Assembly: GCA_036630325.1 (NCBI GenBank)
Contig: CP142731.1
Coordinates: forward strand, 558,001-622,000
DNA length: 64,000 nt
Reading direction: 5' to 3'
DNA from: Vairimorpha necatrix
Lineage: Eukaryota
How positions within the stretch are numbered: position 1 is the stretch's first letter; the number at the start of each line of letters is the position of its first letter. Under the pieces are notes generated by a model. That model saw nothing but the letters and a program-made list of their open reading frames with translations. It did not search any database and was not told where the DNA came from. Shown here piece after piece: positions 1,286-24,398 of the stretch. The translations under genes and the position numbers were made by a program.

Positions 1286-1495
1286 GACCTGGGAGAGGTC
1301 GGGCATGATACTGATGCTGTATTGTTCCGCTGAACTGAGTCGTGTTCTTAAATGGTGTATTGAGCCAGGCGTTTTCGTTTTTCATCAGACTCATGAAAGT
1401 GGGTCTCTAGTCATATTATGACTAAGGATGTATCCTATGGGAACAAACTTTTCTCCTACAAGCGAGGCCGTTAAGGTATGCTGGCGTGTAAACGC
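1286..1495 (+). ncRNA. Conserved structured RNA in LINE 3' UTR (copy 1 of 4)
   Basis: Hairpins GACCT-GGGAG-AGGTC, GACTCAT-GAAA-GTGGGTC, TAGTCAT-ATT-ATGACTA, GCGT-GTAA-ACGC; pairing-preserving changes in other copies. Confidence 0.7.
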
Positions 1496-1615: not shown

Positions 1616-2868
1616 ATGATGATAGAGAATCACTCAAAAGAATATGTAGAACTAAAGGATAAACCCTCCGATGTTCCAAATGATACCAGTAGCGAAACCC
1701 TTCAGTTAGCTACTGGAAACAATGATATTTCTAAATTAGAAATCATCAATGAAGATGTTTTAATTAATGTCAAAAATCTCCCATCTGCTGTCATAAATCT
1801 CGACACTGCTGTCAAAGTAGAAGAACAAGATAAATTGTCAGAAGATGGCAAAAGAAAATGTATAGATGTTTCAAAGGCATCTACAGATATTATAATTAAT
1901 AAAAATATTAAACCAAAAGATGGTAAGCTAGATATAGCTTCCATTAACAAAAAAGCAGTAGTTAGACATCTGTCAACTATCTCTGCTATTATAGCTGGTA
2001 AAAGAAAAGCTCCTAAGAATGGAGTCAAGCTTTTCCATATAAACGAAGACGGATGGACATCTGTCAAACACACATTCAAGCCTAAAGTCCAGATAGACTT
2101 GAAGAAAAACAGAAGTGGTAAAACCACAGATAAAACCAACTTTAATAGATTTAAATCACTTAAAGTAGAAACTGGTGGCAATGTAAAAGTGCCTAAAAAG
2201 ATTAATCATGAAGCTGTAAAGAGAAAAGATATCATTCCTAAAAAAAATCATGAAAAAAGAAGATTACTAAATCAGAAAATAAATTTTACAAAAAAACGAA
2301 GGACAGAAAAAATGAGAAATGTCAACAAAAAAGAAGGCCAGTTTTACCAAAGAAAAACTGGGCCAAAGAGCTAACTGAAGAAGCTCTTATGAAAATTATA
2401 AAGGATGGTAGAATTATTTCCAAATGTAAGTTTAGGCTAGCTCTTGCTTCTGGACTCGGATTAAAAGGGAAACCTCAATCTAGAGACGCTTGGGCAGCCT
2501 TAGCTGATGTGGAAAATAAAGAGATACCACTTATAAAACAATTTAAAGACTCGGAAGTAGTACTTCTGATGATTAGAGAACACGTGTGCCAAAAGGTACT
2601 AAGCAAGATTAAAGAAAAGTTCGGAGGTTCTAATATCTGCGATGAAGTTAATTTCTTCATCGACTTTTTGTCTTTAACAAAAACAACTGTTCTAGGAGAG
2701 CTGCAAAGACTCTCTGGAACGCATAAAAATTTTGTACCGCTTGTAAAAGCATGTTGGTACATAACTAAAGAATTAAATAAAGAAAAGCCAAACCATGGTT
2801 CTTTCATTTATTTAGAAAATATGATGGGTGAGCCTGCCCGAGAATCTAAGGACTTTAACAATGAATAA
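1616..2868 (+). pseudogene. LINE ORF1, partial and frameshifted
   Basis: ORFs 1616-2374 and 2389-2868 homologous to 11219-12170 and 12968-14180; stop overlaps ORF2 ATG at 2861. Confidence 0.75.
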
Positions 2869-5800
2869 AGTATCTTTGTTAAAGTCCTGTTATTATAGGA
2901 AATTATTTTCCTATAACAAGAGTGATATTTTCAAATCTCTAAATAAAAAAACTCATAATCCAATTGGATATAATAAAATAAAAAATACTTTCCAAACGAC
3001 AACGAGATTGAATAGTCTCAAGTATTTTTTCATTAGAAAGAATATGTGGTGGAAGAAAGTACAAGAACAATATTGTATTGTCAAGATACAAAGAATTCCT
3101 TATGGAGTGAAAGATCTCCTCAAAGACTTATGTAAGAAGAACTCTCTTTTGGAGAATTCCATTATTACAGCAAGAAAGTATAGACGAAGAGACACGTCTT
3201 TTACAAAAATAATAGTTGAAAAACTATACGCAAATTTATTGATTAAGACAGTTAAAGCTAAAGGCTTTAAAGTTTTAAATGATAATAGAAAAAAACTAGA
3301 GAAATCTAGTAAAGTAAATAAAAAGACCAAAGAGAACATAAAACTCTTAAGTCTAAACATTAATCATCTCTCTAATAAGAGAGAAGAACTTGAGTTTCTT
3401 CTTAAGAAGGAGAAACCAGAAATTATGTGTTTACAAGAAACTTGGAGACAATCTACAAGACCTTTGAAACTTGAAAAATACACTGCAGTTGAAACACCTA
3501 GTGGTGGAAAAAATAAACCAGGATTAATAACTCTGGTTAGAAATAATGGAGCGATCAGATGTTCCAAAAAAGGAACCGACTCAAACATTCTGCAAACTGT
3601 AGTTGAGTTTAGTTCCGCAGGCAAATGGATTAAGTATTTAGTCTTAAATGTCTACATACCACAAGACAAGGATCTCAAGAGGGAGACCTTGGCCAGATTA
3701 CTTTCTCTTTTAGAAAAAGAGAATTTCAGAAATAACTATAGTGAGATCATAGTGATGGGAGATATGAATATGCAGAGTTCTAGTCTCAAGAAAAAATTAA
3801 ATGTAGTTGGTTTGCCAGTTACAATAAAATATAACAGCAACGACGGTACAAGGATCCTCAAAGATGGTAAAAGATCTAAGAGGAGAATTGATACCATCTT
3901 TCGACTAAAAAGTAATGATAATGAGAAGATCATTATATCCAAGTCTTGGGTATTAAGTGATCACTTAGTGCTCAAAAGAAAAATTAAACTTGCCGTTGAT
4001 AAGATCTCAGATCAACTAGTTTATGATAAGAAAATGCTGGAAAATCCAAAAGTGATTAAAAAGCTTAAAAAGAAGTTGTGTAATCAACAATTAAACATGA
4101 ATAATCTTCCTGAGATTATTCAAAAAGTTTGTACATCTTTGAAGATTTACAAAAAGAGAAGAGTCCATACTGGACTTACAATGAGATGGAGATATTTAAA
4201 AGTCTTCACAGAAAGACGTCTAGCAGCAAGAGCTGTTATGAAAAATTATAATGAAATCAACTCAATTAGATTCGAATATCTCAAAAAGAGAGTAGACGAA
4301 ACTAAAAAGTTGATTCGCAAAGATAGATCGAAACTTTGGGCTTTGAGAGGAATAAAGCTCTTTAAAAGTAACAGATCCCGAGAATTCTGGCAATGGCTGA
4401 AAAATAGAAGTGTCTCCATTCGTTTGGATCAAGTGGCTCTAATTGACCACAATAAGATTCTTCAGACTTGCCGAGCAAAGAAGCTAGAAATAGCGAATAA
4501 ATTTTACGCTGATTTGGCGTCAGAGAATGATATAGATGTCAATGTCTATGATAAAGTAGATCTTGTTGATCTTCCCCCAGAGATAACAGATGAAGAATTT
4601 CTATCCGCACTGAAGAAATGTGGAAATAACAAAGCAGCCGGTCCTGATGAGATTCCAACCGAGCTATACAAACACTTACTGACTAGAGCAGTAGAAGATA
4701 AATTCTTTAAATTCATGCTACATGAATTTAATAAATATATTTGTGGAAATAGTCCTCCTGAATACTGGAGCATGGCAAACATGATTTGCCTCCACAAAAA
4801 AGGAGATGAGACAGATCTAAATAACTATAGGGGAATATCCTTAATTAACACAATTAGTAAGATCTATCTCAAGATAATAAATGACAGGTTAACTCAATTT
4901 GTCGAAGAACAAGATATACTCTCTAGATACCAAGCAGGATTCCGAGCAGGTGAAGAGTGTATGAATCAGATTACATCTCTATTAGAAATAGTGAAAAGAA
5001 GAGAATTCAGAGGCCTGAACACAATAATGTGTTTCATTGACTTTGAAAAAGCTTATGATAATGTAAGTCATGACTTATTATTTGAGAAGCTTACAAAACT
5101 TAATATCCCATTGTATTTAATCAATACAATAAAGGATATTTATAAATATACCACCATGCGTGTGAAAATTGGTGGTGACACGTCAAGTGGTTATAGCTAC
5201 AGAAAAGGAGTGAGACAAGGGTGCCCTTGTTCTCCAATGCTATTCAATATATTCATCAATGATATTTTTGACGGCATAGAAGGAGTTTTGATCCCAAGGT
5301 CAAATACGAGAGTTCCGGGACTGATGTTCGCAGATGATATTGTTGTCTTCGGAAACAACATTGATGATCTTAATAATAAGATCAATAGAATTTCTAATTG
5401 GGCAGTTAATAACAGAATGAAGATTAACTGCTCAAAAAGCGGAGTATTAGAATGGGCTGCTCATTCTAACATACAAGAATTCCGAAGTTTGTATTCTCTC
5501 AGTACAGACTTTGGTGTGATTGAGGAAGTCACTGAATACAGATATCTAGGTGTCTTAATTAAAAGAAACACGCTAGAAGAACACTTGGTCAAAGACGCAG
5601 CAATGCGTGGCAAGAAAGCCTTGGACGCCTTGATGCCCAAGTTGATGAAAAGCAGCATCAATCTCTACTTCAAGGCGATCTTAATAAAATGTGTACTAGT
5701 ACCCACACTAATGTATGGCAGTGAATTGTGGGGAATGTCAAGTACAAGAGCAGGTAAGATTAACAGGATCTTAAGAAAATCTATCAGAATGATATTCAAA

Positions 5801-5953
5801 AGAGTATTAGTTCCACTAGATAGAGTAATGGACGAGTTCAGTATCGAACGAATTCATATACAAGCAGCTTTAAGTAGATTTAGAGCATACAACAAGTGGA
5901 AACACAATAAGACAATCATATCGGATATAATTGCAATAAATCCGAAAGAAAGA
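2861..5953 (+). CDS. LINE ORF2 (APE endonuclease + reverse transcriptase), interrupted; continues 10148-10747
   Basis: APE motifs SLNIN, CLQET, GDMN, RID, SDH; RT motifs QAGFR, DFEKAYD, GVRQG, FADD, YLG. Confidence 0.95.
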
Positions 5954-8900
5954 TGTGGTATCTTTGTGCAGCACAGATCCACAAGAAGAATTGTTTGTTT
6001 GTTTACACAACAAACATATAAAACTATAAATATAATTTCAGCCCTTACCCATATATAAACAACAACAACGATGAACACCAGACGAACTAAACAGAAAACA
6101 ATCACAGGGAAGAACCCTATATCTAACAACATAAATAAAAAAATTGTAAATAAAAATATTTTAGAGACATACTTCGAATTAGGATATGTCAATTTGAGCT
6201 CAAAAGATGAGAACCTAAACGAAATAAAGATGAAACAAAAAACTGACCAAGAAACGAAATTAAAAGGATTAACCTTCTCAATGAAGATAGAAGGATTAGA
6301 ACATAATTTAACACAAGAAGTGAAAATTATAGAACAGATAGAAGTAATCGACATCATAAAATGGTGCGATGAATTTGAAAATTTGATAAATATGAACAAA
6401 TGGAACAAACAAATACAATTTGCAATACTAAAACAACTAATAAAAGATTCGAGATTAGTAGATTTTGAAAAGAATCAGTCTTGGAAAGAAATCAAGCGAT
6501 ATTTGATAGCTTTTAAGTTTCCGCCAGAGGAGCGTAGATATTATAGGAGAAAATTATTAAACATACATCAGACTCACTATGAAAAGATGCAAGACTATTA
6601 CGACGCAATCAAGGAGATTTTAGTAATTATAAAAACCATGGAACAGTTAACTGAAGCTGAAGTAGAAAAGTTATTCGACGAAGCCTTCCACGCAGGACTA
6701 GGAAAGTTTACATACGGTCGAGTAATAGAATATGGTCTAGGAACTTATCGGGACTCTTTTGAATTTTTGAAAAGTCTTGAGAACAAGATCAGAATCAGAG
6801 CTAAAGAGATGAAAGAAACACGCAACTCAGACAGTTACGAGAGCAAAAGCGTTTTCAAAAAAGACGACAATAATACGAATAAATTTACTGACAAATATTG
6901 CAAGTTTCACAAGCACTGTAATCACACAACAGAACAATGCACAAAATACGATAAGGATTTTTATAACAAACAGAAAGAAAAAAATCAGAAAAATAATTTC
7001 TATTACATCAAGGAAAAGGTGAATAACTTTGAGAAGACACAAATCAAGGGAAAGATAAACAATACAGTAATTGAAATAATGATAGACAATGGAGCTAATA
7101 GAAGTTTTTTGAGTGAAGAAGCAGCTAAGGAATTAAAACTTGACATGTATGAAACCGAAGAAGTAACACTCCAATTCGGAAACGGATCGACAGGACGCAC
7201 TCATAAGAAAGCCAGAGTAGCGATAAAATTAGAAGGAGTAAAGAAAAAAATTGAAGAAGACGTATACATATACAACGAACTACCTGTAAAAATGATTCTA
7301 GGCAACGATTTTTTGCTTAACAATGGCTGGCTACTGGATTACAAAAATAAGTGTGTAATGGTTCATAAAAATATGATACCTATGATAGGAGCTGATAAGA
7401 TCAATGAGGACGAAATGGATGCAATATTGTATGAACGAGTCTTATTGATCGAAGATGCTAAAATTGTGGAGAACTCGGAAATACCATACAAATTAAAAGA
7501 ATATGTGAAAAAGAATGATGATTATAAAAAAATCAACATAAAACCTATAAAACTATACATTGAGGATAAAATTAAAGACCATAAGTTAGACCTGAGATAT
7601 TATACGGTCCCATTAAAATACGAACAAGAAGCAAAGAAAGAAATATTACGACTTCTAAATAACGACATAATTGAAAGAAGCAGAAACTACTATGCGAGTC
7701 CTTCTTTCTTTATTGAAAAGAAAACAAAGGAACTAAGATTAGTAGTTGATTATAGAATAGTCAATAGATTCATCAAGGATGAGATATGCTTAATACCAAA
7801 AATTTTCGAAAACTTACTTAAACTCGGAGGAAACACGTTCTTTAGCAAGATTGATTTAAAGAACGGCTTTAACCAGCTGGAACTGGACGAATATAGTAGA
7901 GATATTACAAGTTTTACCATATTTGGAGAACAATACAGGTACAAAAGAATACCTTTCGGCATCAAATCTGGCCCTAAGTTGTTTCAGAAAACAATAAATC
8001 TAATACTAGATGGGATTGAAAAAATAATAATATATATAGATGATATTGTGATATATGGAGAGACACCTAGCGAACATAACCAGACCTTGTCTCAAGTATT
8101 AGATCGACTCTCTCTATATAACGTGAAAATAAACTTTGAAAAGAGTACGTTTGCAACAAGACGACTAGAAATATTAGGTAATATAATAGAAGGTAATCAA
8201 ATACGAATTGATACGAAAAATATAGATAAACTGATAAATGAGAATGCAACCCCAACATCTAAGAAAGAAATCCAAAAAATAATGGGAATAATAACATGGT
8301 ATCGTAATTTTATACCAGATGTTAGCAGAAGAATTGCTTGCATATCAATGCTGCTACAAGCAAATACTAAAGAAAAGTGGGGAGAACCTCAAACTAAAGC
8401 CTTAAAGGAGATTAAGCACGAAATAAAAACGTCAGCACAACTAAATTTACCAGATTTTAAAAGAGTATTTATTATACAATGTGACGCCTCAAATGAAGGC
8501 ATGGGAGCAGTTATTTTTCAGGCCCATGGAGTCATAGGGTATTACAGCAGGAAATTCAACAACACGGAGAAAAATTATACGATTGTCGAAAAGGAAATGT
8601 TTGCAATCATTAAAACATTAGAATTTTACAGAGTGCTTATTCTGGGATACAGAATAGAGATACAGACAGACAGTAGAAACTGCATTTTTGAAAATAAAAC
8701 GATATCTAAAAGAACGGAACGTTGGAAACTTTTATTGAACGAATACGACGTAACGGTACGCAACATTGAAGGTGCGACTAACCATATAGCAGATAAACTA
8801 TCAAGATGCTTTACGATTAAGCTTTCACACGACGAATTAGAGTATTACATAAAACGATATTTAAAAGAAAAAGATGGAAAATATCTATTAGACAAACACG

Positions 8901-10142
8901 GTAGATACATTGTGCATGAAGAAAAGGCCGATAAATTTATCGAAGAAATACACAAATTTACTGTACACCCAGGAGTGACAGTTATGTATCAGAATATTAA
9001 AAGAAAGTACAATATAAAAAACATAAAAAAGAGAATTTTGCAAGTTGTCAGCAAATGCATTGTTTGCATTAAATGCAAGAAAATCAAAACAAAGAAGAAG
9101 AAAAGCTTAAAAATAGAATCAGACCAATTAATGAAGAAGATAAGTACGGACATTTTTGGCCCGTTTGAAATAGTAGAGTACGAACACTCGTTACCTAATG
9201 AAAAAGCATTTTTTTTGACGATAACTGATATTTACAGTAGGTATACAAGAGTAATTTTAATGGAAAAAACAACTACTACAAAATTAATAAAGGAATTTAA
9301 AAAATGGATCGAAGATTTCGGTTGCCCACAAACAGTAATCTGCGACAATGGAAAGCAATACACCAGCAAAGAGTTTGATATATTTTTAGAAAAACAAAAC
9401 ATTAATAAGATTGCAACACCTATGTATCATCCTTCGTCAAATGGCATCAGTGAACGCCTAAATCAGACAATAGCAGAAGTGATGCGAATGTACAGAGGAG
9501 AAAATATAGCGAAAGTAACGAAAATGATTATGAGAAGATTGAATATCAACTTCCATAGAGGGATCCATGAACAACCCATAGCAATAGTAACCGGATATTC
9601 CCCGTTTGACTTAAACAAGCAGGTTGGAAAGCATGAACCGCACACTATAAAAAATATTGATAATAAAACAAGCAACTGGGAAATGACGAACAACGAAGAC
9701 ATTAATAGATTCAAAATTGGAGATAAGATCTTCTTGAAAAATTTTACAGGATCAAAAATTGATGATTGTTATTTAGGACCATACAAGGTCACAGTAGTTA
9801 GTAAGAAGGGAAGATGGCTAAAGATAAGTGGAAAAAATGAATGGATACACATTGACAATGTAAAAAGGATGACCAGCTATTGATTTTTGGTGGAAAGGGC
9901 AGATTGTGGTATCTTTGTGCAGCACAGATCCACAAGAAGAATTGTTTGTTTGTTTACACAACAAACATATAAAACTATAAATATAATTTCAGCCCTTACC
10001 CATATATAAACAACAACAACGATGAACACCAGACGAACTAAACAGAAAACAATCACAGGGAAGAACCCTATATCTAACAACATAAATAAAAAAATTGTAA
10101 ATAAAAATATTTTAGAGACATACTTCGAATTAGGATATGTCA
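5954..10142 (+). mobile_element. Ty3/Gypsy LTR retrotransposon, apparently intact, palindrome-PBS type
   Basis: 238-bp TG..CA LTRs 5954-6191 and 9905-10142, identical by eye; TSD AAAGA; PPT GGAAAGGGCAGAT; PR-RT-RH-IN order. Confidence 0.97.
6071..9883 (+). CDS. Gag-Pol polyprotein, single 1270-aa ORF starting inside the 5' LTR
   Basis: CKFH-x4-H-x4-C knuckle, IDNGA protease, YIDD RT, CDAS RNase H, HHCC + DDE integrase, GPY. Confidence 0.96.
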   Translation: MNTRRTKQKTITGKNPISNNINKKIVNKNILETYFELGYVNLSSKDENLNEIKMKQKTDQETKLKGLTFSMKIEGLEHNLTQEVKIIEQIEVIDIIKWCDEFENLINMNKWNKQIQFAILKQLIKDSRLVDFEKNQSWKEIKRYLIAFKFPPEERRYYRRKLLNIHQTHYEKMQDYYDAIKEILVIIKTMEQLTEAEVEKLFDEAFHAGLGKFTYGRVIEYGLGTYRDSFEFLKSLENKIRIRAKEMKETRNSDSYESKSVFKKDDNNTNKFTDKYCKFHKHCNHTTEQCTKYDKDFYNKQKEKNQKNNFYYIKEKVNNFEKTQIKGKINNTVIEIMIDNGANRSFLSEEAAKELKLDMYETEEVTLQFGNGSTGRTHKKARVAIKLEGVKKKIEEDVYIYNELPVKMILGNDFLLNNGWLLDYKNKCVMVHKNMIPMIGADKINEDEMDAILYERVLLIEDAKIVENSEIPYKLKEYVKKNDDYKKINIKPIKLYIEDKIKDHKLDLRYYTVPLKYEQEAKKEILRLLNNDIIERSRNYYASPSFFIEKKTKELRLVVDYRIVNRFIKDEICLIPKIFENLLKLGGNTFFSKIDLKNGFNQLELDEYSRDITSFTIFGEQYRYKRIPFGIKSGPKLFQKTINLILDGIEKIIIYIDDIVIYGETPSEHNQTLSQVLDRLSLYNVKINFEKSTFATRRLEILGNIIEGNQIRIDTKNIDKLINENATPTSKKEIQKIMGIITWYRNFIPDVSRRIACISMLLQANTKEKWGEPQTKALKEIKHEIKTSAQLNLPDFKRVFIIQCDASNEGMGAVIFQAHGVIGYYSRKFNNTEKNYTIVEKEMFAIIKTLEFYRVLILGYRIEIQTDSRNCIFENKTISKRTERWKLLLNEYDVTVRNIEGATNHIADKLSRCFTIKLSHDELEYYIKRYLKEKDGKYLLDKHGRYIVHEEKADKFIEEIHKFTVHPGVTVMYQNIKRKYNIKNIKKRILQVVSKCIVCIKCKKIKTKKKKSLKIESDQLMKKISTDIFGPFEIVEYEHSLPNEKAFFLTITDIYSRYTRVILMEKTTTTKLIKEFKKWIEDFGCPQTVICDNGKQYTSKEFDIFLEKQNINKIATPMYHPSSNGISERLNQTIAEVMRMYRGENIAKVTKMIMRRLNINFHRGIHEQPIAIVTGYSPFDLNKQVGKHEPHTIKNIDNKTSNWEMTNNEDINRFKIGDKIFLKNFTGSKIDDCYLGPYKVTVVSKKGRWLKISGKNEWIHIDNVKRMTSY

Positions 10143-10835
10143 AAAGAAAAACTACCTGGTGTTCAAGAACACAAAGATGGTTAAAACGATTTGTCGGCAA
10201 CGAATACGAATCAAGTGATAGTAAATTTATCACTTCAAAAATAATTGATGTACTAAGAAGTCGAAGAACTCTAAATACTTCTTTAGCTGCATCAATAGCA
10301 AACCAATATGACATAAGAAATTCACAAATAAAATATGTCATGAACAAAATAAACAATAGAAAAATTAGAACATATACTAGATTGAGATGTAATCTAGTAA
10401 AGTGGTCCTCAGCAATAGCACATTCAAAAAGAATTCCAATGAGTTATAGAAACAAATGCTTTTTGTGTGATGGACCACAAGAAAATTTAGAACACTTTCT
10501 GCTGGAGTGCGTCTGTTTAACTGACATTAGATCATCTTTTGAAAATAAACTGCCTCTACTGACTTGTTCAAAAACAAATATCCGAGAAAAAACCAAGCAA
10601 CTCCTTGGTAATAAAATCGGATTAAGAAACAACCCAGATAAGATTAAAGAACTCTGTTTTATTATAGATTACTTAGACAAGATGGTTGTCTCTAGAAGAA
10701 TTATGATTAATAACAAACTGAAGGAGATAACGAAACAAAATAATTAATATAGCTTAATTAAAAAAAATGAAAATCTAGAATTAGAAGAAAGAAGTGTTAT
10801 ATTATTAACAAAAAGACTTATATTTAATTATATTT

Positions 10836-11045
10836 GACCTGGGAGAGGTCGGGCATGATACTGATGCTGTATTGTTCCGCTGAACTGAGTCGTGTTCTTA
10901 AATGGTGTATTGAGCCAGGCGTTTTCGTTTTTCATTAGACCCGTGAAAGTGGGTCTCTAGTCATATTATGACTAAGGATGTGTCCTATGGGAACAAACTT
11001 TTCTCCTACAAGCGAGGCCGTTAAGGTATGCTGGCGTGTAAACGC
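10836..11045 (+). ncRNA. LINE 3' UTR structured RNA (copy 2)
   Basis: Homologous to 1286-1495; GACCCGT-GAAA-GTGGGTC variant keeps pairing. Confidence 0.7.
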
Positions 11046-11157
11046 AATTATTGATGATTTTTTCTTTATTAGTGGAGTTTTTGGTGGCTTGGAGGCTTTT
11101 CTTCGTTTTGCTGATTCTGTCTTTTTTACAATAAACAATTTTATTTTATTTTTTTAT

Positions 11158-12170
11158 TCCTAAAAAAGATCATGAAAAAAGAAGATCGCAAAATCGTAAA
11201 AAAAATTCTACCCCCAAAATGGAGAACAAAAAAGGTAAGAAATCTCAGAAAAAGGGAAGCTCAGTTTTACCAAAGAAAAACTGGTCTGAAGGGCTATCAG
11301 ACGAAGCTCTCATGAAAATTATTAAGGGCGGTAGATACATATCTAAATGCAAGTTCAAGTTAGCTCTTGTGTCTGGACTCGGGTTGGACGGGAAACCCCA
11401 ATCTAGAGATGCCTGGGCAGCGATGATGGAAGTGCAAAGCAAAGATATCACCCTTATAAAACAATTTAAAGACTCGGAAGTAGTACTTCTGATGATTAGA
11501 GAACACGTGTGCCAAAAGGTACTTAAAAAAATTAAAGAAAGATTTGTAATGAAGGGTAGAGAGAAACCAAACAGGAGCGAGCTCAGTAGAGCAAAAAGTG
11601 ACCACTTTGGTGGTCCAAACAACAATTTAGATACAGAAATGTATTTAAAACAACATACTAAGCATGTATATGCTAATAAAAGTTTCCCAAGTGTTACTTT
11701 CAAAAATGATGGAGAAATGAAATATTTTCTCAAGAAAATCAAAATTCTTTCAGAAAGAATTAATAAAAATGATATTTTTGACATATCAAAAAAAGATAAC
11801 AATAAAGATCTTATTGATCTTAAAAGATACATATCTAGCACTACTGAATTAGTATTTATTCAGCAGACATATTTGGAGCTCTTCCATGACAAGCTAGAAA
11901 AACAAAATATCAAATTAAAAAATTTGATTAAAAATAATCTGATCGATGACAGTGATCAAATTACTGAATCAACAAAAAATAAAATTGAGATAATGATAGA
12001 GAATCACTCAAAAGAATGTGTAGAACAAAAGGATAATAACTCCGGCGTTCCAATTGATACCAGTAGCGAAACCCTTCAGTTAGCTACTGGAAACAATGAT
12101 GTTTCTAGATTAGAAATCACCAATGAAGATGTTTTAATTAATGTCAAAAATATCGTGTCTGCTGTCAAAA
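11158..12170 (+). pseudogene. Two joined LINE ORF1 fragments (internal piece 11158-11545; N-terminus from ATG 11549)
   Basis: Homology to 2236-2620 and to 27903-28063 / 12684-13145 / 1613-1795. Confidence 0.8.
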
Positions 12171-12669
12171 CCCTCCACAAGAGAGCGTCCACGTCGCGGA
12201 GGGTGGGACCGATGTTTTTTAACTAGGTGCAGATCTCTAAGTCTTACCAACCTTCGGCTGCTGGTTGGTAAGTAGGGTCAGCTATACTCTAGGGGTGGGA
12301 GACCCATTGCTGGTGAGAAGGACAACGTTAACTTTCGAGTAATTCTTCATATTTTTAACCTGGGAGAGGTTGGGCATGATACTGAAGCTGTATTGTTCCG
12401 CTGAACTGTGTCGTGTTCTTAAATGGTGTATTGAACCAGGCGTTGTGTTTTCGTCAGGTCCGCGAAATATGTAGTCAGAGATGACTAAGGATCTGTTACC
12501 TACGGGAACAAATTTTTCTCCTACAAGCGAGGCCGTTAAGGTATGCTGGCGTGTAAGCGCACTTATTGATGATTTTTTCTTTATTAGTGGAGTTTTTGGT
12601 GGCTTGGAGGCTTTTCTTCGTTTTGCTGATTCTGTCTTTTTTTTACAATAAACAATTTTAATTTTTTTT
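12171..12669 (+). mobile_element. Putative non-autonomous SINE-like unit: structured head + LINE 3' UTR/tail
   Basis: Head 12171-12350 homologous to 28080-28260; 12357-12669 is a diverged LINE 3' UTR with T tail; no ORF2. Confidence 0.6.
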
Positions 12670-14176
12670 ATGATGGTAACTCTAGCGTTACTTTCAAAAA
12701 AGATGGAGAGATGAAATATTTTCTTAAAAAAATTAAAATTCTTTCAGAAAGAATTTGTAAAAATGATTTTTTGGACATGTCAAAAAATAAAAGTAGAAAA
12801 GATCTTAATGATCTTAAAAAGTTTATATCTAGTACTACTGAATTAGTAACGATTCAGCAGACATATCTGGAGCTCTTCCACGATAAGCTAGAAAAACAAA
12901 AAATGAAATTTAAAAATTTGATTAAAAATAATTTGATGGATGACAGTGATCAAAGAACAAAATTGAGATGATGATAGAGAATCACTCAAAAGAACATGTA
13001 GAACAAAAGGATATTAACTCCAATGTTCCAAATGTCACCAGTAGCGAAACCCTTCAGTTAGCTACTGGAAAGAATGATGTTTCTAATTTAGAAATCATAA
13101 ATGAAGATATTTTAATTAATGTCAAAAATCTCGAATCTGCCTCTAAAGTAGAAGAAGAAGATAGATTGTCAGAAGATGGCAAAAGAATGTGTTTAGAAAC
13201 AATTGAAGTCTCTAAAGAAAGTAAAAATATAACTAATGAAGTTGTAAATACCAATAATGTTAAGCTCGATGTAGCTGACATAAATAAGAAAGCAGTAGAT
13301 AATCATCTTAAAATTATCTCAGCAATAATATCTGGTAGAAGCAAAGCTCCAAAGAATGGAGTTAAGCTATACCAAATCAATAAAGATGGATGGAAGTTTG
13401 TCAGACATACCTTTAAGCCAAAGATGCAATTTGGTCTTAATAAAAACTCTAGTATTAAACATACTAAATTAAAAGAACTTAATAGATTTACTAATATTAA
13501 GTAGAAAACCTAGGGAAGTGTATTAAATTTCCCAAAAAGGAAAGCCTGACAATGTCACTAGGCGAGAAAAAAAATTCCATCAAAGAAAAGAAAAATTCAA
13601 GCCCCAAAATGGCTAAGAAGGAATCCCAAGAGAAATCTGGCAAGAAAATAAACCCAGTTCAACCTCAGAAGAACTGGGCAAAAGGGCTTTCTAAAGAAGC
13701 TCTCATTAAAATTATTAAGAGGTGGATGTCCTATATCCAAATGCAAATTTAAATTTGTATTGGTAGGAGGTCTGGGAGTATGGAAGGAGCACCAAGCTAG
13801 AGACGCTTGGGCTGCTCTACTCACTATTGAGAGAAAAGGCATCCCACTCTTAAAGCAGTTTAGAGATGAAGAGTCTATTCTCTTGATGCTCAGAGAAGGT
13901 ACCTGCGAAAGAGCAGTAAAAAATCTCTTGGACGAAATCCCAGAGGCATATGTCTGTAATGACGAGACATTTATGGTGGACTTTCTAAAATCAAAGAAGG
14001 ATTTAATTCTGGAGGAGCTTCTGAGGGTTTCTAGATGAATAAAAATTTTATACCACTTACGGAAGCTTGTAAGTACATAAAGAAGAATTTAGGTAGTGAG
14101 AATTTAGCATATAAAAATTTTATCTACCTACATAGTATGATGGGTGAACCTGCCCGGAAAATGAAGGACTCTAAAA

Positions 14177-16423
14177 ATGAATAAAGTTGATATTCTTTTA
14201 AAGTCTAAGTTTTACAAGAGATATTTCTCTTTCAAAATTCAATATTTATTATCTTTATTAAATAAAAAAATCACTAATCCTACAGGATTAAATAAACCTT
14301 TTGGAGCTTTCAGAAGCCGTAGAAGGATGAAGTGCATAACTTCATTTTATCAGCGGAAAAATCTATGGACTAGAAAACTACAAGAAAATTTCTGTATAGT
14401 TAATATGCAAAGAATTCCCGTCGATTGTAAAGACCTAAGAAAATGTCTTGTAAAAAGAGAGTCTGAATTAGATTCTGCCATTTTTACAATACGAAAGTTT
14501 AGACGTAGAAATGCGCCATTAACAAAGATAGTAGTTGAAAATTCACATAAAAATTTATTGATTAAGATTATTAAAGCTGAAGGCTTCAAAGTTTTAAATG
14601 ATAACAAAAAAGGATTAGAAAAAACTAATAAAACAGTAAAAGAGAACAAAAAGAAGATAAAACTCTTAAGTCTCAACATCAACCATCTCTCCCACAAGAG
14701 AGAAGAACTTGAGTTTCTTCTTAAGAAGGAGAAACCAGAAATTATGTGTCTACAGGAAACCTGGAGACAATCTATGAGACCCCTTAGACTAGAAAAATAT
14801 ACTGCGGTTGAAACACCAAAAAGTGGGAAAAATAAACCAGGGTTAATAACTCTGGTGAGAAACACTGGAGCTATTAGATGTAGCAAAAGGAGAACTGACT
14901 CAAACATTCTGCGAACAGTGGTTGAGTTCAGATCGGAAGGGAAATGGATTAAGTACTTAATCTTAAATGTCTACATACCACAAGACAGGGATCTCAAAAA
15001 AGAGGTGCTTGCCAGACTTTTGTCTCTTCTAGATAAAGAGAAGTTCAGAAACTACTATAGTGAGATTATAGTACTGGGAGTTATGAATATTCAGAGTTCT
15101 TTCAAGAAAAAACTAGTAGTAATTGGTTTACAAGTTACGATGAAGTATAACAGCAAAGATGGTACAAGGATTCTCAAAGATGGAAAAAGATCTAAGAGAA
15201 AAATTGATACCATCTTTAGGCTGAAAGAATATGAAAATGAGAAGATCATTATATCAAAGTCTTGGGTACTAAGTGATCACTTAGTGCTCAAAAGATATAT
15301 CTCACTAACTGTTGATAAGATCTCTGATCAACTAGTCTATGATAAAAAGATGCTGGAAAATCCGAAAGTGATTAAAAGGCTTAAAATGAAGTTGAGTAAT
15401 CAACAATTAAGTATGAATAATCTTCCCGAGATTATTAAAAAAGCTTGTACATCTTTAAAGATCTACAAAAAGAAAAGGGTCCACATTGGACTTACAATGA
15501 GATGGAGATACTTAAAAGTCTTCAAAGAAAAGCGTTTAGCAGCAAAGGCGGTTATGAAAAATCACAATGAAATCAATTTAGCCCGGCTTGTAGATATCAA
15601 AAAGAGAGTAGAAGATACGAAGAAATTGATTCGCAAAGATAGATCGAAACTTTGGCCTTTGAGAGGCATAAAGCTCTTTAAAAGTAATAGATCAAGAGAA
15701 TTCTGGCAATGGCTGAAAAATAGAAGTGTGTCTATTAAATTGGATCAAGTGGCTCTCTCTGACCACAATAAACTTCTCCAGTCTTGCCAAAAAGAGAAGC
15801 TAGAAATAGCAAACAAATTTTATGCTGAATTAGCATCAGACAATTTAGATATTAGTATCTATAAGAAAACAGATCTTGCTGACCTCCCACCAGAGATTAC
15901 AGAAGAAGAATTTATATCTGCATTAAAGAAATGTGGAAACAACAAAGCAGCCGGTCCTGATGAGATTCCAACCGAGCTATACAAACATCTACTCATCAAT
16001 AGAGTAGAGAACAATTTTTTTAGATTCATGTTAACTGAATTTAATAAATACATTAGTGGAGAACCCCCACCAAAATACTGGAGTATGGCAAACATGATTT
16101 GTCTCCACAAAAAAGGAGATGAGACAGATCTGAATAATTATAGGGAAATCTCCTTAATTAACACAATTAGTAAGATCTATCTCAAGATAATTAACGACAG
16201 ATTGACCCAATTTGTTGAAGAAAATAACATCATCTCTAAATACCAAGCAGGATTTAGAGATGGTGAAGAATGTATGAACCAAATTATTTCCCTACTTGAA
16301 GTAGTAAGAAGAAGAGAATTTAGAAGCATGAACACAGATATGTGTTTCAAAGACTTTGAGAAAGCTTATGATAATGTAAGTCATGACTTATTATTAAGTA
16401 AGCTAGAAAATCTAGATTTATAA
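14177..16423 (+). pseudogene. LINE ORF2 N-terminal part (APE + start of RT), disrupted
   Basis: Homologous to 2861-5110; GDMN motif altered to GVMN; stop before Tc1 insertion. Confidence 0.9.
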
Positions 16424-16442
16424 GTATTTGATCAATACAATA

Positions 16443-18030
16443 CAGTTCATTTCATTTTTATAGATACCTTGTTTCATTTTTATAGACATCTTGTTCCATT
16501 TTTATAGACACCTTGTTCCATTTTTATAGACACCCTATTTCATTTTTATAGACACCCTATTTCATTTTTATAGAACCCTCATTTCATTATTATAGAACCC
16601 TTGTTCTAAAATTTATTTTACTTTCCTTTAAAATTTTTAAACCTTAAAATATGAGAAACCTAAATGTCAGAGATGAACTTAAGGAATATCGTAAAAAAGA
16701 TCATTTGCTGAGATAGAAGATGAAACGCAGTTTTATACTCCAAGAAAAACCAGGAAGATGATTACCAGGTCGATAATCGAAAATTTTCTTTTGTTACTCG
16801 ACCTGGTATGAAACTTATTGATATGGAAGTTGCTTTAAATCTCAGTATGTCTAGCGTCAAACGCCTATATAAAAGATATCCTACGGAGAATTTACCAACC
16901 TTTAACTTTAAAACGGCAGGACAAAAAAAGAGTGAATCTTTAAAAGATATTTCTATGGTGTGTTAAATATTATTGCAACGGAAATGGCCCGTAATCCTTG
17001 CCTAGGTCTATATAATTTATCCGATAAATTGCAAAATTTAAATTCCACGGGACATTACTCTAAGTCAACTGTTTGCAGACTTGTTAAAAAAATAGGGTAT
17101 AGTTCTAAACCCTGACTTCGATTCCACTAAGTAGAAACAGTCCTTAGAACAAGCTGTTAAGGTGTCAATATGCGAGGGTAATAGATATCATATCGAATGA
17201 TAATTTAATATTTCTCGATAAAACTGGTTTAAATCTGAACCTTAACAATACTTTTGGTTATTCTTTAAGAAATACTAAGTGTTGTGTAACGGCCCTGAAT
17301 TCGAAAGAGACTAATGTTTCTTTAATGTGTGCTATAAGCGTTATTGGATTATAAGCGACTAAAATAAAGTCGGAATTTTAAATCTACAGATTTTGTCAAT
17401 TCATTAACAACTATTTACCTATTTGTGAGCAAGAGGAAAACAGATTTATAATATTGGATAACTCATCTATACACAGAACATCCGAAGTAGCTGCTGCATT
17501 TAGAAACAAAGGATACAGTCTAAAACTTCTCCCTCCTTATTCTCCACAACTAAACCCCATCGAGGAGTTTTTAAACAGTTTCAAGTCCCGAGTAAAACAG
17601 AGAGCTCTATGTAACAACCACTCCTTTGTTAATTGATTGTATTGAGGACGTGTTGAACACAGAAGTATTTGTCATAAATGGTTACTTTTCTCATATGAGA
17701 GAATTTATCGAGAAAGCTCTTGTCAATGAGAATTTTTTTCTGAATTAATATTAAAAATTTTAATTAAAAACTTCTAAGATGTTTTCATTGTTTGCCATGT
17801 AAATATTGATGTTTATATCTATATCGTTATCTCTTCTTTACGATTTAACTATATAAACTAAATATGAAAAAAAAAAAAATAAATTTTATAACAAGGTGTC
17901 TATAATAATGAAATGAGGGTTCTATAAAAATGAAACAAGGTGTCTATAATAATGAAATGAGGGTTCTATAAAAATGAAACAAGGTGTCTATAATTATAAA
18001 ACAAGGTGTCTATAAAAATGAAATGGACTG
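16443..18030 (+). mobile_element. Tc1/mariner (IS630-like) DNA transposon, degenerate
   Basis: TA duplication; TIR CAGT(T/C)CATTTCATTTTTATAGA; DNSSIH...LPPYSPQLNPIEEF at 17454-17636. Confidence 0.92.
16450..16606. repeat. Subterminal ~22-bp tandem repeats of Tc1 left end (mirrored at ~17890-18025)
   Basis: Repeated TTCATTTTTATAGACACCTTGT-like unit with inverted copies at the right end. Confidence 0.85.
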
Positions 18031-18767
18031 TAAAGGATATCTAAAAAACACCACCATGAGAATCAAAATTGCTGGAGAATTATCAAGTGGCTATAGCTAC
18101 AGAAAAGGGGTGAGACGGGGGTGCCCCTGTTTTTTAATTCTTTCAATATATTCATAAACGATATATTTGACGGCATATATGGTGTCTTGATCCCAAGATC
18201 AAATACAAGAGTTCCAAGACTGATCTTCGCCGATGATATCGTTGTCTTTGGAAACAACATTGATGATCTAGATCGGGGGTCGGCAACCTTTTTGAAAAAA
18301 ATTCAAAATGGGTAATTTCAAAATCTTAAAACAAAAAACGGGCGCAAGCTCAAAAAAATATCTAAGAAAAATAAAATAAATGCTCTGGAAAATTTTTTTA
18401 AAAAAACATTTCGTAGCGAATAATACAATTATGATTTTTTCCAGTATTTTTAAGATAGGCACTTTTAACAAGTTTTAATTTTTTATATTAAAACGAAAAT
18501 TATAATTAAATATATTTACAAGAGTTTTCTTAAGTGTTTAAAAGAATCGAAAAAAAATAAATTTAATGGTTTTATATAGATTATATAGACATTGTTTTGA
18601 CAAGAATGCGAAGAAAATTTCTTCACAATTACTTTAAAGAGGTTTAAATTTTGTTTTCGATTAAATCTCGAAGAAGTAATAAAAATTAACTACGTGTAGA
18701 GAAATACTTAGAAACAATACTTTTTAATGAGATACTTGATTTAGCATGTCATCTGCAATTTGGTCAT

Positions 18768-21700
18768 TGTTGAGTGAAATAATAATTATTTATAGCCCCT
18801 ATTCTAGAATAAATGTTTATGGTGGAGAATATGAAAACAGAGATTAGTAGTGAAAATATCTTGCAGGAGCTACAAAGAGCTTCTTTACTTTCCAGTTTTA
18901 ATAAATTATCAAATGAGGAAAAAATTGATTATTTTATTCATAAAGCCAACATTGAGATACTAGATTGGCATAGTAAGTTAATGAAGGAGAAACGGAAATG
19001 TTCATTAACATTTGAAATGTGGAAAGAGTTGGCAGAAACGGAATTTGACTGCGGTACTGGATTGTACGAATTATATACTTTAAAACAAAAAGAAAACCAA
19101 AGTATTGTGGAATTTATCAAAGATGTAGAAAAGAAATGTCTAAAGGAAAATATCAGAAATACGGATAAAAGGAAGATAATAAGAAATGGAATCCTATCAA
19201 GATATAAGGCTATAAAAATGGTATTAACGGGGCAATATGAAATTAATAAAGAATTCCTTGAAATAATTGATGAAATGGAAAAGGAAAATAACGATATAAC
19301 AAAAATAAGACAACCTGCCTCCAATAACATCAACAAAAGATATTCATGTTATTTTTGCCACAAGGATGGGCATATCGCTAAAGACTGTTTTGCGAAGAAG
19401 AAAAGAACTGATGGTAAACAACTACAGTATAAAAGGATAAATGAGATCCACCAAGAAGGCGGAATGTTGGATGCAAACTTTATTAACAATAAAGAAGATT
19501 TAATATATGTTTATAATGAAAAAATTAATGTAACTTTTGACTCGGGTTCTTACTATAATTTTATGAGTAAAAAGGCTGCTTCTAAACTAACTTTAAAAAT
19601 TTATAGAAGTACAGAGGAAATATATTTTTTAACATGTTTAGAAGAAAGATTCGGGATTACAGAATATGTGATATTAGATTTCTCTTATGGTGGTAAAAGT
19701 TATCGTTCTAAATTTTTTATATTCCCTAAGGTGGAAAAATTTAAAATACTTGTAGGAAAAAAGACATTACAAGAAATATTGAAAAGGGTGTCTAGCAATA
19801 GAATTTGTGAAATAAATACGATAAAAGGAGAAAAAATTGTTGAAAAGGTCTATACACTACCAAAAAAGTTAGAAGAAGGAGTGGAAAAATCTATCAAAGA
19901 ACTACTAAGGAAAAATTACATAAGAAAATCAAAATCAACGTGGTTGAATATTTTAAGACCAGTAATTAAACCAGATGGTTCTATAAGAGTTACTACAAAT
20001 TTAGTTTCGTTAAACAAATTGGTAGAGCTAGATAATTACTCCTTACCACACATTGATAAGCTTTTATACGGGCTTCGTGGAAAAAAATATTTTAGTGAAT
20101 TGGATTTAAAAGATGCATTTTTTGTATAGAATTAGCGGAAAAAGATAGATATAAGACCGCTTTCAGATTTAAGCACCTATTATATGAATGGAACGTTATG
20201 CCAATGGGGTTTAAAAATGCTCCGGCAATTTTTCAAAGATTTATAGTTGATGTTTTACAAGAAGAAATAGGGAAAAGTTGCTTCGTGTATGTGGATGACA
20301 TACTGGTTTTTGGAGAAAACGAGGAAGAACATGATTTTAATTATGAGAAGATCATAACAAAGCTTAAAAGCTATAACTTAGGTATTAATGAGAATAAAAC
20401 AATATATAAGGTTAAAGAACTTACCTTTTTGGGACATTTAATAGCATATAATGAAATAAGCCAAAAATTACACGGGACCAAGCAATTAACGATATGAAAA
20501 GACCAATCAATAAAAAATCACTGCAAGAATTTCTGGGACTTATTAATTATTATAGAAAATTTATTCCTAATTGTTCAAAAATCGGAGGATGTTTATATGA
20601 TCTTACAAAAAATGATATTCAATTTAATTGGGGGAAGGAACAGGATTCTGCTTTTAATACATTAAAGAAAATTGTATTGTCGAGCAGTGTGCTTAAACAG
20701 CCAGATTTTAGTAAACCTTACATATTAGAAACGGATGCATGTGACTCTGGTCTGGGAGCGATCTTGTCACAAGAAAATGAAGGGCATGTGTACCCAATCG
20801 CGTACGCTTCTAGAAGATTGGTTCCAGCGGAAAGAAATTACAGTATCAGCGAGAAAGAATGCTTGGGTGTCCTATGGGGAATGGAAAATTTTAGATATTT
20901 TTTATATGGAAATGAGTTTAAAGTAATAACTGATCACAAAGCTCTAGAGGTCCTAAATAAAGGCGAAATAAAATCGTTACGTATACAAAGGTGGCTTGAT
21001 AAATTGAGTGAGTATAATTACACGATCGAGTACAAAAGGGGGACAGATATTCCTCACGTCGATTGTTTGTCAAGATCTTATCTTAATGAGTTAAATACGG
21101 ATGAAATAAATATGATTGAATTTAGCGAAGAAGAAAAAAGGTCTATCATAAGGAATAAACATATAGAATTAGTTCACAGAGGATCAAAAGTTATTGAAAA
21201 TGAATTAAGGAAAAAATATCATTGGAAAGATATGTCGCATATGGTAAAAACGGAAATTAATAAATGTCTAAGATGTAAGATGTACAATCCACAAAGAGGA
21301 AAAAAATTTATATTTGTGACAGCATACGAACCTGGCGAAAAGGTAGCTGCCGATATTATAGGACCAATCAATGGAAGCTATATAATTACAGCGATCGACT
21401 ATTTTACAAGGAAAGCATGGGCTAAAGTCATTACTACTAGAGAGAGTAATAAGCTAGTGAAATTTTTTGATGAAGTTTATAATGACATAAAGATTAAAAT
21501 ACTAATTCTTGATCAGTCAAAAGAAAATTTGAGTATTGAGGTAAAACAATGGGCAACGAGAAATAATGTTCAAATTCATTATATTTCCCCTTTTCATCAC
21601 CAATCAAACGGAAGAATAGAAAGATTTAATAGGACAATACAGGAAGGTATATATAAAGATAATAGTTTTGGAAATTTGAAGACAAAAACTAAGCGTGTAC

Positions 21701-22099
21701 TAGATGTATACAATAATGTTAGACACTCCGCTCTTGGCATGTCGCCAGACGAAGCATGTAATCCTAAGAGAGCTCAGGAGATTAAACTAAAACAATTCGA
21801 AGAAATCGTAAAATTCAACCAACGACAGAAGAAAAGAGGAGCTGAATTTATTTTTAAAGAGGGAGATAGAGTTATAATTAGAAGAGAAACCGATTTAACA
21901 AAGGGAAAACCTAGATTTGAATCGCAAGGTATAATTATTAATATTTTAGGAAATAATTCTTATAACGTTAAGGTCCATAATAAAACTATAAAGCGACATG
22001 GCTCGCAACTTAAACTAATAGTAGAGGATTATTTTGAATGAGGGGGATGTTGAGTGAAATAATAATTATTTATAGCCCCTATTCTAGAATAAATGTTTA
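18768..22099 (+). mobile_element. Ty3/Gypsy element with 52-bp LTRs and tRNA-Ala-type PBS
   Basis: Identical repeats 18768-18819 and 22048-22099; TSD GTCAT; PBS TGGTGGAGAAT; PPT GAGGGGGA. Confidence 0.93.
18813..22041 (+). pseudogene. Gag-Pol with two frameshifts
   Basis: CCHC knuckle, FDSGS protease, YVDD, TDAC RNase H, integrase over ORFs 18813-20129, 20198-20497, 20494-22041. Confidence 0.9.
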
Positions 22100-22580
22100 G
22101 TCATAATTAATGAGGTAAGATGAATTGACAGCTCTTAAACAGCTTTCTAAATGTTTGTCCGTAAGTTGTGTTCGATAAACGAATTTAAATACGTCATATT
22201 CGAAAAAAGAGCTTCACAATTATATGTGGTTCCACAATATGAAAATATTTTGAGTGCACATTTTCTTAAAATGGGGAAACTATTATCTGAAACCAATTTC
22301 CAAAGTCCTTGTCTAAATAATGAGATTTTAAAACTATATCATTCTTCAAATTAATAATTTCAATTTCTAAGTCGTCCATGTAACTATATGAAAAAAATTA
22401 GAAATTTTTACTGGTAAATCAGAATAAAAACATCAAAAGGATTAACAAAAAATAGATTTATTTCTCTAATGATCGAAAATCATGAAATCTTTTAGAAAAC
22501 TCAATCAGTAATAAATCATTTGCGCCTATGTACAATGTAGGATCGAATTCATGAATACTTAAATTTCTTTTTTTAATTAT

Positions 22581-24398
22581 TGTCGCGCGCGCGAGGCGCA
22601 CGTGCGCCCAGCCCGCACACGGCCCAATTCCCGCTTTTTGAGCCATTTTTCATTTTTTTAAGGGTGCTTATGAAAAATGGCTCGCGCGGGGATCGAATTC
22701 TTCCTCTTAAATTTGACCAGTTCGATTCAGAATTTCTGACCGCTGAGCTAAACTCAGTTATAAAAAAACCTTAAAAATATAAATAAGTTAAAAACAACAC
22801 CATTTTAAAAAATATTTCATAACATCCCTCAAATGGTCTTACCTGTGAAAAACTCGGAAGAATATAAAAATATTCTAGATATTATTGTAGAAAACAAAGT
22901 CGTAAAAGATATTTCGAGGTTTTCTTTAACGAGATTAAGGAAAAAGGCTGAACACTTTACAATTGTAGATAATCATCTTTACTTAAGAGGTATCGACAAT
23001 CTACATTTAAAGGTTTTTGCACAAACGGATATTTGTGCGATGAAGTTAGAAATGCAAAAACTTCACGTAGATGGGCATTTAGGTCAGAATGCCCTATACC
23101 TAAAAAGTAAATGTTTATATTTTTCAATCCCAAGGGAATTGATACGTGATGTTGTACGTGAATGTAAAATTTGCGCTCAATGTCAGCCTTTGAAGACAAA
23201 GGAAAAAATGAAACATATTACAGCAGAATTTCCATGGGAACGCCTAATGATAGATCTTATTGATATGAGATCATACAAGGAGTTTAACGATGGGTATTGC
23301 TGGATATTATCTATTTTGGATGTATATTCAAAATTTGCCAGAACATATCCATTAAAAGGTAAGACAGCTGAGTGTGTTATAGAGTGTTTGGAGGATTTAT
23401 TTGAACATTATGGTGTACCTGGGATCATTCAAAGTGATAATGGTAAGGAGTTTAGGAACAAATTGATGTATGATCTTGCATCAAAATATAAAATCCTTCT
23501 AATAAACGGGAGACCTAGACATCCACAGACACAGGGTCAGGTGGAACGGTTTAACCAAACAATCACAAGGTTATTATCAAAAAAATTAATGGACGAAGAA
23601 ACATCAGAACGAAGTGAAAGGTGGATTGATTGTCTAAAAAAGGTTACTAGTGTTTATAATCAAGCAGTTCATTCTGCGACTTCTTTTACTCCATTTGAGA
23701 AAATGTTTAACAGAGCTGGTTACAACACAGTAGTTCGTAAAAATTTAGAACCTGAGAATAAAGTGTCTTTAGAGTTAGATAGAGAAATATGTCCTGTGTC
23801 TGTTGATAATGAAATCGATTGTGTTAAAAAGGAAGAAAAATCTAAAGAAGACTGTGTATTTTCGAGTTACCAAAAAAAATACTTTGCACGAATGGATAGA
23901 CGCGCGGTACACAATTCTATTTATGATTTTGAAGTAGGTGATACTATTTTATTGAAAAAAGATTTTGATAATAATAAAAAAACTAAGAAAAAAAAACTTG
24001 AATCTTTCTATCATAAAGAGTCTATAGTAATAGAAATTTTATCTAACAATCGAGTAAAGTTAAATTTAGAAGGAAATGAAGTTATAGTAGATTTAAATTT
24101 GATTAAAAAAATAAAAAATTAGTTTATATATTTTGTCAGTACTTTTACTTATAAGGATTCCCGAACCCAACATATTATCTTGAGTTTAAAAAGATTCCAA
24201 TATCAAAAATATTCCCATGCAATAAAAAACTTCTTTAAATCTAAACAATTTAATTATCTTTTTAAAGTAAAACAAATCTATTATTTTTTATTCCTTAATT
24301 TTCCTTCGGAAAAAAAAAATTGTTCTCACTGCGCTCGAACCCGGCAAAAACTTCGTTTTTGTGCGGGCTGGGCGCACGTGCGCCCTGGGCGCTTGACA
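22581..24398 (+). mobile_element. Ginger2/TDD-like integrase DNA transposon
   Basis: TGT...ACA ends, ~40-bp imperfect GC-rich TIR, 5-bp TSD ATTAT. Confidence 0.9.
22833..24122 (+). CDS. Integrase-like transposase, 429 aa, open
   Basis: HHCC zinc domain, IDLID, SDNGKEF, HPQTQGQVERFN; no RT. Confidence 0.92.
   Translation: MVLPVKNSEEYKNILDIIVENKVVKDISRFSLTRLRKKAEHFTIVDNHLYLRGIDNLHLKVFAQTDICAMKLEMQKLHVDGHLGQNALYLKSKCLYFSIPRELIRDVVRECKICAQCQPLKTKEKMKHITAEFPWERLMIDLIDMRSYKEFNDGYCWILSILDVYSKFARTYPLKGKTAECVIECLEDLFEHYGVPGIIQSDNGKEFRNKLMYDLASKYKILLINGRPRHPQTQGQVERFNQTITRLLSKKLMDEETSERSERWIDCLKKVTSVYNQAVHSATSFTPFEKMFNRAGYNTVVRKNLEPENKVSLELDREICPVSVDNEIDCVKKEEKSKEDCVFSSYQKKYFARMDRRAVHNSIYDFEVGDTILLKKDFDNNKKTKKKKLESFYHKESIVIEILSNNRVKLNLEGNEVIVDLNLIKKIKN

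Follow-up and report, generated by a model that had tools for sequence, protein, structure and literature searches.

The window, by which we mean the whole 64-kb stretch of DNA analyzed here, is AT-rich (26–41% GC across 2-kb steps) and dense in retroelements. An open reading frame of 1077 codons at positions 2825–6058 is the ORF2 of a LINE, with an Exo_endo_phos endonuclease domain and an RVT_1 reverse transcriptase domain. The solved structures nearest to this protein are L1 ORF2p (E = 4e-33) and, after it, R2 proteins (E = 3e-23), and the best named protein matches are reverse transcriptases of Vairimorpha necatrix, at 81% and 92% identity; two further relatives of ORF2 (P0001 and P0002) stand at 55% identity. 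Judged from its sequence, the parent element is an APE+RT LINE of the Nosema/Vairimorpha type of microsporidia.

The ORF2 with which the window opens ends at 1199 and is followed, on the + strand, by a 3′ UTR that falls into distinct parts. An AT-rich spacer (1200–1285) leads from the stop codon to a conserved core block (1286–1495), which begins 87 nt 3′ of the stop and ends ~120 nt short of the element end. A G/T-rich extension (1496–1580) is near-identical in three copies, and the terminal tail (1581–1620), against which a 5′-truncated next unit abuts, is made up of a T run, AATAAA, and T-rich, ATTTT-like repeats. This places the block at the very 3′ end of a LINE that is autonomous, encoding both endonuclease and reverse transcriptase. 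The element closes on short repeats rather than on poly(A): AATAAAC and T-rich, ATTTT-like ends are found in three full copies and in a tail-only fragment at 27827–27884, whereas the fourth full copy, at 27358, cannot be aligned across these terminal repeats.

Results

Copies of the block and the LINE array

Copies of the block are labeled here by their start positions as c1 (1286), c2 (10836), c3 (12357), and c4 (27358). A 33-mer taken from the block start matches the 64-kb window at 1285, 10835, 12356, and 27357, all on the + strand, where zero matches are expected, and BLAST together with an nhmmer profile of the four copies retrieved nothing else from the window except one tail fragment of ~60 nt. 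The whole 3′ UTR recurs at 10755–11158 (core 10836–11045; 95.6% identity over 406 nt), where it ends unit U1. The third copy (12350–12669, core 12357–12560; 89.3% over 328 nt) belongs to the chimeric unit U2, and the fourth (27274–27639, core 27358–27568; 85.9% over 370 nt) closes the diverged unit U3 at its 3′ end. The tail-only fragment, at about 27820–27884 on the + strand (90.2% over 61 nt), is what is left of a heavily 5′-truncated copy. Outside the LINE array, the 64 kb contain no copy of the block.

The array occupies 1–27.9 kb and consists of U0–U3 and small fragments, arranged head-to-tail on the same strand (+), with each next unit abutting the T-rich tail of the previous one. U0 ends at 1620, U1 (1621–11158) has a Ty3/gypsy element inserted in it, U2 spans 11159–12669, and U3 (12684–27639), which is 76–80% identical to U1, carries nested insertions. 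The points of 5′ truncation differ, position 1621 corresponding to about 11995 and position 12684 to about 11690, and the unit that starts at 11159 extends furthest 5′. Because the units start at differing points of the element, they are separate insertions and not duplicates of one unit. The layout of the array suggests a preference of the LINE for insertion at its own tail. At the 5′ end of U2 (11190–11225), a C run and AAA immediately precede the first ATG of ORF1; the LINE may have its true 5′ end here.

Several other elements share the window. The Ty3/gypsy element (5954–10142) lies within the ORF2 of U1, has 239-bp terminal repeats (5954–6192 and 9905–10143) that are 100% identical, is bordered by a duplication of 5 LINE bases at its junctions, and keeps an open gag-pol frame of 1274 codons with protease, reverse transcriptase, RNase H, and integrase; it looks young. 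An insertion of ~1.6 kb in U3 (16446–18030) is flanked by two arrays of a 22-bp repeat (16450–16605 and 17890–18023), one the reverse complement of the other, and could be a transposon with inverted ends built of repeats. An open frame of 519 codons at 33068–34627 contains a MULE transposase domain (E = 5e-10).

The block and tail might act as a signal at the level of DNA for the next unit, either as a landing site for further LINE insertions (self-targeting) or as a promoter driving the unit downstream. Consistent with such a role, all four copies sit in one same-strand array, next units abut previous tails at differing truncation points, and in one contig from the public sequencing run X1 (see below) a tail is likewise succeeded by a copy whose truncation point is 1425. 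However, repeated insertion could be explained by the T-rich tail alone, through what we infer would be microhomology with the U-rich end of the RNA, and the 5′-truncated units come without a start of their own. TAACC telomere repeats are also absent from the 64-kb window, which speaks against a telomeric array. Taken as a whole, a DNA-level signal seems to us quite unlikely.

A chimeric unit with a GC-rich head

U2 lacks ORF2. Its ~1 kb of LINE leader and ORF1 is followed by a GC-rich head of 174 nt, which a short linker joins to the 3′ UTR block. The head (12177–12350, + strand), which replaces ORF2 before the third copy, is unrelated to the LINE, and LINE homology resumes just before the block. 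The folding energy of the head region (12170–12360) corresponds to a z-score of −0.65. A unit of the U2 type may be a non-autonomous rider; putative non-autonomous use of the tail is represented by this one chimeric unit in the window and by one contig of run X2 with a junction closely similar to the head–linker–block arrangement of U2. In contigs of X1, X2, and X3, a variant of the block is joined after GTGGAG (~1527) directly to the start of the GC-rich head, which amounts to a second type of block–head junction.

The first ~135 nt of the head recur at 28091–28225 (91.1% identity), where they open a non-coding stretch of ~1.4 kb (28091–29500, with 29686–29804) whose GC content is 41–57% per 150-nt step, compared with 26–37% in the other 2-kb steps. 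A/G-rich tandem repeats come after this GC-rich stretch, which may be a retroposon. Viewed as a structured RNA, 28091–29500 has a mean z-score of ~0 on both strands, no credible match in Rfam, and no ORF of more than 94 codons.

Conservation of the block between subfamilies

An earlier note on this DNA had described the four copies and had called the block better conserved than the preceding AT-rich spacer. The copies at 1286, 10836, 12357, and 27358 are all present on the + strand, and the difference from the spacer proved stronger than claimed. In the pairings among c1, c2, and c4, identity is 98.1, 93.3, and 92.4% over the block (1286–1495), 86.0, 70.9, and 65.9% over the spacer (1200–1285), and 94.6, 77.6, and 78.7% over the ORF2 C-terminus, the middle value being in each case that of c1 against c4. 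These two copies, which represent diverged subfamilies, differ at 14 of 210 positions in the block and at 25 of 86 in the spacer, and their differences at the ORF2 end are distributed over codon positions 1, 2, and 3 as 36/198, 23/199, and 74/198. The block is therefore conserved above the neutral level between the subfamilies. Beyond it, identity between c1 and c4 is 76.2% in 1496–1580 and 47.5% in the tail; among c1, c2, and c3, conservation extends to ~1580 (98.8% for c1 against c2 in 1496–1580).

We regard the 3′ UTR module as real, conserved, and probably functional. Strong conservation between subfamilies could also reflect recombination or template switching instead of selection.

Conservation of this kind might also come from a small coding frame. 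The frame at 1428–1583 on the + strand, which begins MYPMGTNFSPTSEAV, is open for 54–63 codons in three copies. From c1 to c4, however, six of its changes alter an amino acid and two are silent (as read by eye from the variable columns), and in c4 the frame stops prematurely, for which two reasons it was rejected. Minus-strand frames across the block, when translated, likewise had no protein match in a 5.8-billion collection, and a coding explanation retains hardly any probability.

Predicted fold of the block

The same note had presented the block as a covarying RNA with a likely pseudoknot and an unusually complex fold. The motifs that it quoted are all where it had placed them: GACCT/AGGTC has changed to AACCT/AGGTT in c3, GACTCAT, GACCCGT, and GACCCAT face GTGGGTC, the loops change from ATT to GAGA and from GTAA to GAAA, and CTGATG (1311)/CATCAG (1383) crosses TTGTTCC (1322)/GGAACAA (1440). 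Four local hairpins on the + strand are of particular concern here. Hairpin H1 (1286–1300), in which GACCT and AGGTC enclose a 5-nt loop, contains the sole compensatory change, from G-C to A-U at 1286/1300 in c3. Hairpin H4 (1388–1405) has 7 bp and a GAAA loop, carries wobble changes on one side in both c1 and c2, and has lost 5 nt of its 3′ strand in c3. Hairpin H5 (1408–1424), formed by TAGTCAT, the loop ATT, and ATGACTA, has the loop GAGA in c3 and a C·A mismatch in c4 (at 1411/1421), and hairpin H6 (1484–1495) consists of GCGT, a GTAA loop that is GAAA in c4, and ACGC.

The structure of the earlier note was scored as 35 pairs in six helices, with one pair dropped (G1388 had been used in two helices). 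Changes on both sides that keep a pair occur at one of the 35 pairs, a result equaled in 121 of 500 shuffles, and when substitutions were placed at random, at least one compensatory pair arose in 15% of the trials (c3). Covariation among the four copies is thus at chance level. The pseudoknot fares no better: its pair 1315/1384 has changed on both sides in c3, to A and G, and is left unpaired, c4 has a C·A mismatch at 1328/1440, and crossing combinations of 6- and 7-mers are present in 29% of shuffles. This pseudoknot is not kept across the copies.

Minimum free energies (MFE) are likewise similar to those of shuffled sequences (z = −1.19 for 1286–1495, −0.45 for 1286–1580, and −0.23 for 1280–1580), which does not agree with an unusually complex fold. 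The segment 1380–1430, which comprises two adjacent hairpins, alone stands out (z = −3.16; opposite strand, z = −2.11). Perfect 6-mer stems number 8 compared with 3.9 ± 2.5 in shuffles (p = 0.095) and 7-mer stems 2 compared with 0.9 (p = 0.24). In the MFE fold, two of the four 4-nt hairpin loops are GNRA, where the composition of the block gives P(GNRA) = 0.032 per loop. RNAalifold, run on the four copies, proposed an alternative nested fold of 81 pairs, which was rejected for clashing with H1 and for being no better supported (one compensatory pair in 81). When three lineages are pooled, eight pair-preserving changes stand against five pair-breaking ones, with 33.5% expected to be preserving (p = 0.036), or p = 0.059 with the H4 deletion counted as a break; since the structure was picked after the variation had been seen, the former value is a hint only.

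Several of these results would be expected if there were no RNA fold at all and the block were alike through recent copying, recombination, or conversion, or were read by a protein as plain sequence, with the helices arising by chance complementarity. The shuffle-like energy, the equally shuffle-like counts of crossing stems and of short stems (6- and 7-mers), the single compensatory pair, the five broken pairs, and the half-deleted hairpin all agree with this explanation, and a short exchanged tract would look much like c4, whose flanks (spacer 71%, 1496–1580 76%) are far more diverged than its block (93%). It is harder to reconcile with the nominal excess of pair-preserving changes (p = 0.036–0.059), the z-score of the adjacent hairpins, the GNRA sequence of two out of four loops, the recurrence of the block behind foreign sequence, and a depth that greatly surpasses the ORF2 end (see below). 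We consider an explanation without any fold somewhat unlikely. Local stem-loops are plausible, given the weak pair-preserving excess and the two GNRA hairpins; a covarying pseudoknotted RNA is not demonstrated.

Searches for known families and related sequences

A scan against Rfam identified no known family for the block. The whole 64-kb window returned zero matches at the gathering score, and with E values of up to 10 the region 1150–1650 returned only a partial mir-44 hairpin and an sR17 snoRNA, both weak and sub-threshold, and the region 12100–12720 returned none. The option of a ribozyme, which the earlier note had also raised, thus finds no family match in either region even at E = 10. 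A tRNA-like element was considered and rejected, as the window contains zero tRNA genes. In JGI metagenome contigs, an invariant 20-mer of the block occurs at two loci, both of them chance matches within GC-rich, prokaryote-like coding DNA. Two DNA-pattern scans of a genome contig collection gave zero block matches, and viral contigs gave zero by DNA pattern and zero confirmed by the ORF2 protein.

Depth and junctions in public sequencing runs

Seven public sequencing runs match part of the stretch, none of which is recorded as RNA, and four of the seven were aligned to positions 800–1700 at a likeness of at least 80%. In X1 (518 contigs), the summed contig depth, which is not a copy number, is 216–961 over the ORF2 end, 25–174 over the spacer, and 17,897–764,384 over 1265–1605. 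In most bins of the block, the depth in X1 is more than 100 times that of 800–1264, and the step coincides with the block start. Because copy numbers do not follow from summed contig depth and X1 is of a guessed library type (DNA), this is read only as far more block than ORF2 end in that run. In X2 and X3, most covered bins of the block also have a higher depth than the ORF2 end, though the excess stays under 10-fold.

By depth, the c3-type variant of the block is in the majority in X1 and X2. The A at 1315, which is the letter of c3 and breaks the pseudoknot pair, accounts for 106,518 of a depth of 109,750 in X1 (97%) and for 117 of 180 in X2 (65%), and both X2 and X3 contain the c3-type middle part. 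Joints from 1148 to 1325 in X1 and from 1256 to 1329 in X2 indicate relatives in which the first 40 nt of the block are missing or replaced.

If X1 were RNA, the abrupt step in depth at the block start would mean that a 3′ fragment accumulates, as expected of a processing or self-cleaving RNA or of a structured RNA that resists nucleases and persists as a stable transcript of its own; local hairpins with GNRA loops would fit such a molecule. However, X1 is guessed to be DNA, the variant with most of the depth breaks the pseudoknot pair, and Rfam contributes nothing in the 64 kb beyond the two weak sub-threshold matches mentioned above; a processed RNA appears very improbable to us.

Discussion

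Proposed role of the 3′ UTR block

The reading that we prefer, and hold with middling confidence, takes the block for the conserved core of the ~415-nt 3′ UTR of an APE+RT LINE and for a cis-acting tail of the stringent type that serves the element's own ORF2. A reverse transcriptase-recognition element in the 3′ UTR had been suggested in the earlier note, and this part of the suggestion is supported indirectly: the block lies at the 3′ end, is conserved above the coding sequence, is reused behind foreign sequence, and exceeds the ORF2 end in depth. The complex fold attached to it is not supported.

According to the mechanism that we propose, the block would act in cis, within the RNA transcript, and the ORF2 protein would recognize it on its own transcript. 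Target-primed reverse transcription would then begin at the T-rich terminal repeats, and tail-bearing units without ORF2 could be carried along. The local hairpins at 1286–1300, 1388–1405, 1408–1424, and 1484–1495, two of which have GNRA loops, would be part of the recognized shape. Binding by the reverse transcriptase and a role of the hairpins in recognition are proposed by analogy with UnaL2 and ZfL2, and the long-range helices and the pseudoknot are left out of the proposal.

A bolder reading, which we judge unlikely, takes the block to be a portable folded module with several GNRA hairpins that would serve as a reverse-transcription ticket for the LINE and for far commoner non-autonomous or tail-only copies, and whose tail would also steer insertions behind old copies and in this way build arrays. 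Bolder still, and offered as speculation, is a variant in which the >100-fold depth jump in X1 may come from a stable 3′ UTR-derived RNA protected by its fold.

Comparison with known non-LTR elements

At ~210–300 nt, the conserved part of the present tail is longer than the tail of UnaL2, which we take to be short and hairpin-bearing. The 3′ tail that UnaL2 has in common with its partner SINE is described as critical for retrotransposition (PMC1636434), and the ORF2 proteins of stringent-type LINEs are described as recognizing their 3′ tails (PMC4176376). As in eel UnaL2/UnaSINE1 and zebrafish ZfL2 (PMC1636434, PMC4176376), a conserved non-coding element forms the very 3′ terminus of a LINE of the APE+RT type. 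Features shared with UnaL2 and ZfL2 are short terminal repeats in place of poly(A), reuse of the tail by a unit without ORF2, and one or more small hairpins, here predicted. Unlike the tRNA-headed SINE of the UnaL2/UnaSINE1 pair, the candidate partner here is a chimera of LINE ORF1, GC-rich head, and tail, and unlike UnaL2 and ZfL2, the present element belongs to a microsporidian host.

The R2 3′ UTR RNA is reported to be folded, pseudoknotted, and bound by the R2 protein (PMC12222951, PMC2346776), and here, as in R2, a 3′ UTR RNA of a few hundred nt is proposed as a scaffold for reverse transcriptase binding. Since the R2 pseudoknot is already known from that work (PMC12222951), the idea of a pseudoknotted scaffold is not new in kind. 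Unlike R2, the element has an endonuclease of the APE type and is closer to L1 ORF2p, shows neither rRNA in the window nor insertion into rDNA, and has a pseudoknot that is unsupported; it does not fall into the R2 clade.

Non-LTR elements that form head-to-tail arrays include Drosophila HeT-A/TART, Chlorella Zepp, and Giardia GilM/GilT; in HeT-A, a promoter for the downstream unit is carried by the 3′ end. The array described here, with U0–U3 and fragments all on the + strand, is HeT-A-like in its head-to-tail order, and it resembles the HeT-A/TART, Zepp, and GilM/GilT arrays in that same-strand units with variable 5′ truncation are joined to the preceding 3′ end. Double insertions have been described as seeds of tandem arrays (PMC5932611). 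Unlike arrays of the HeT-A type, the present one has no telomere repeats beside it in the window, and a promoter in its 3′ end or self-targeting is a candidate idea.

Significance for microsporidian retrotransposons

To our knowledge, the LINEs of microsporidia have been counted and hardly dissected. The main text of a survey of microsporidian transposable elements (PMC4202319) uses neither "UTR" nor "SINE" (0 occurrences of each), and we found no description of this tail in the microsporidian LINE literature as far as it is represented by passages of PMC4202319 and PMC10759460, whose supplements may list these elements. The kind of mechanism is not new, as conserved and even pseudoknotted 3′ tails are known in other LINEs. 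A 3′ module that stays at 93% identity while the coding sequence drifts to 78% would, however, be the first candidate for a cis-acting retrotransposition signal in microsporidia, and its significance as such would be greater if non-coding riders share the module. About half of a 15-Mb genome consists of repeats (PMC10759460), and the module would help to explain how repeats came to make up this share.
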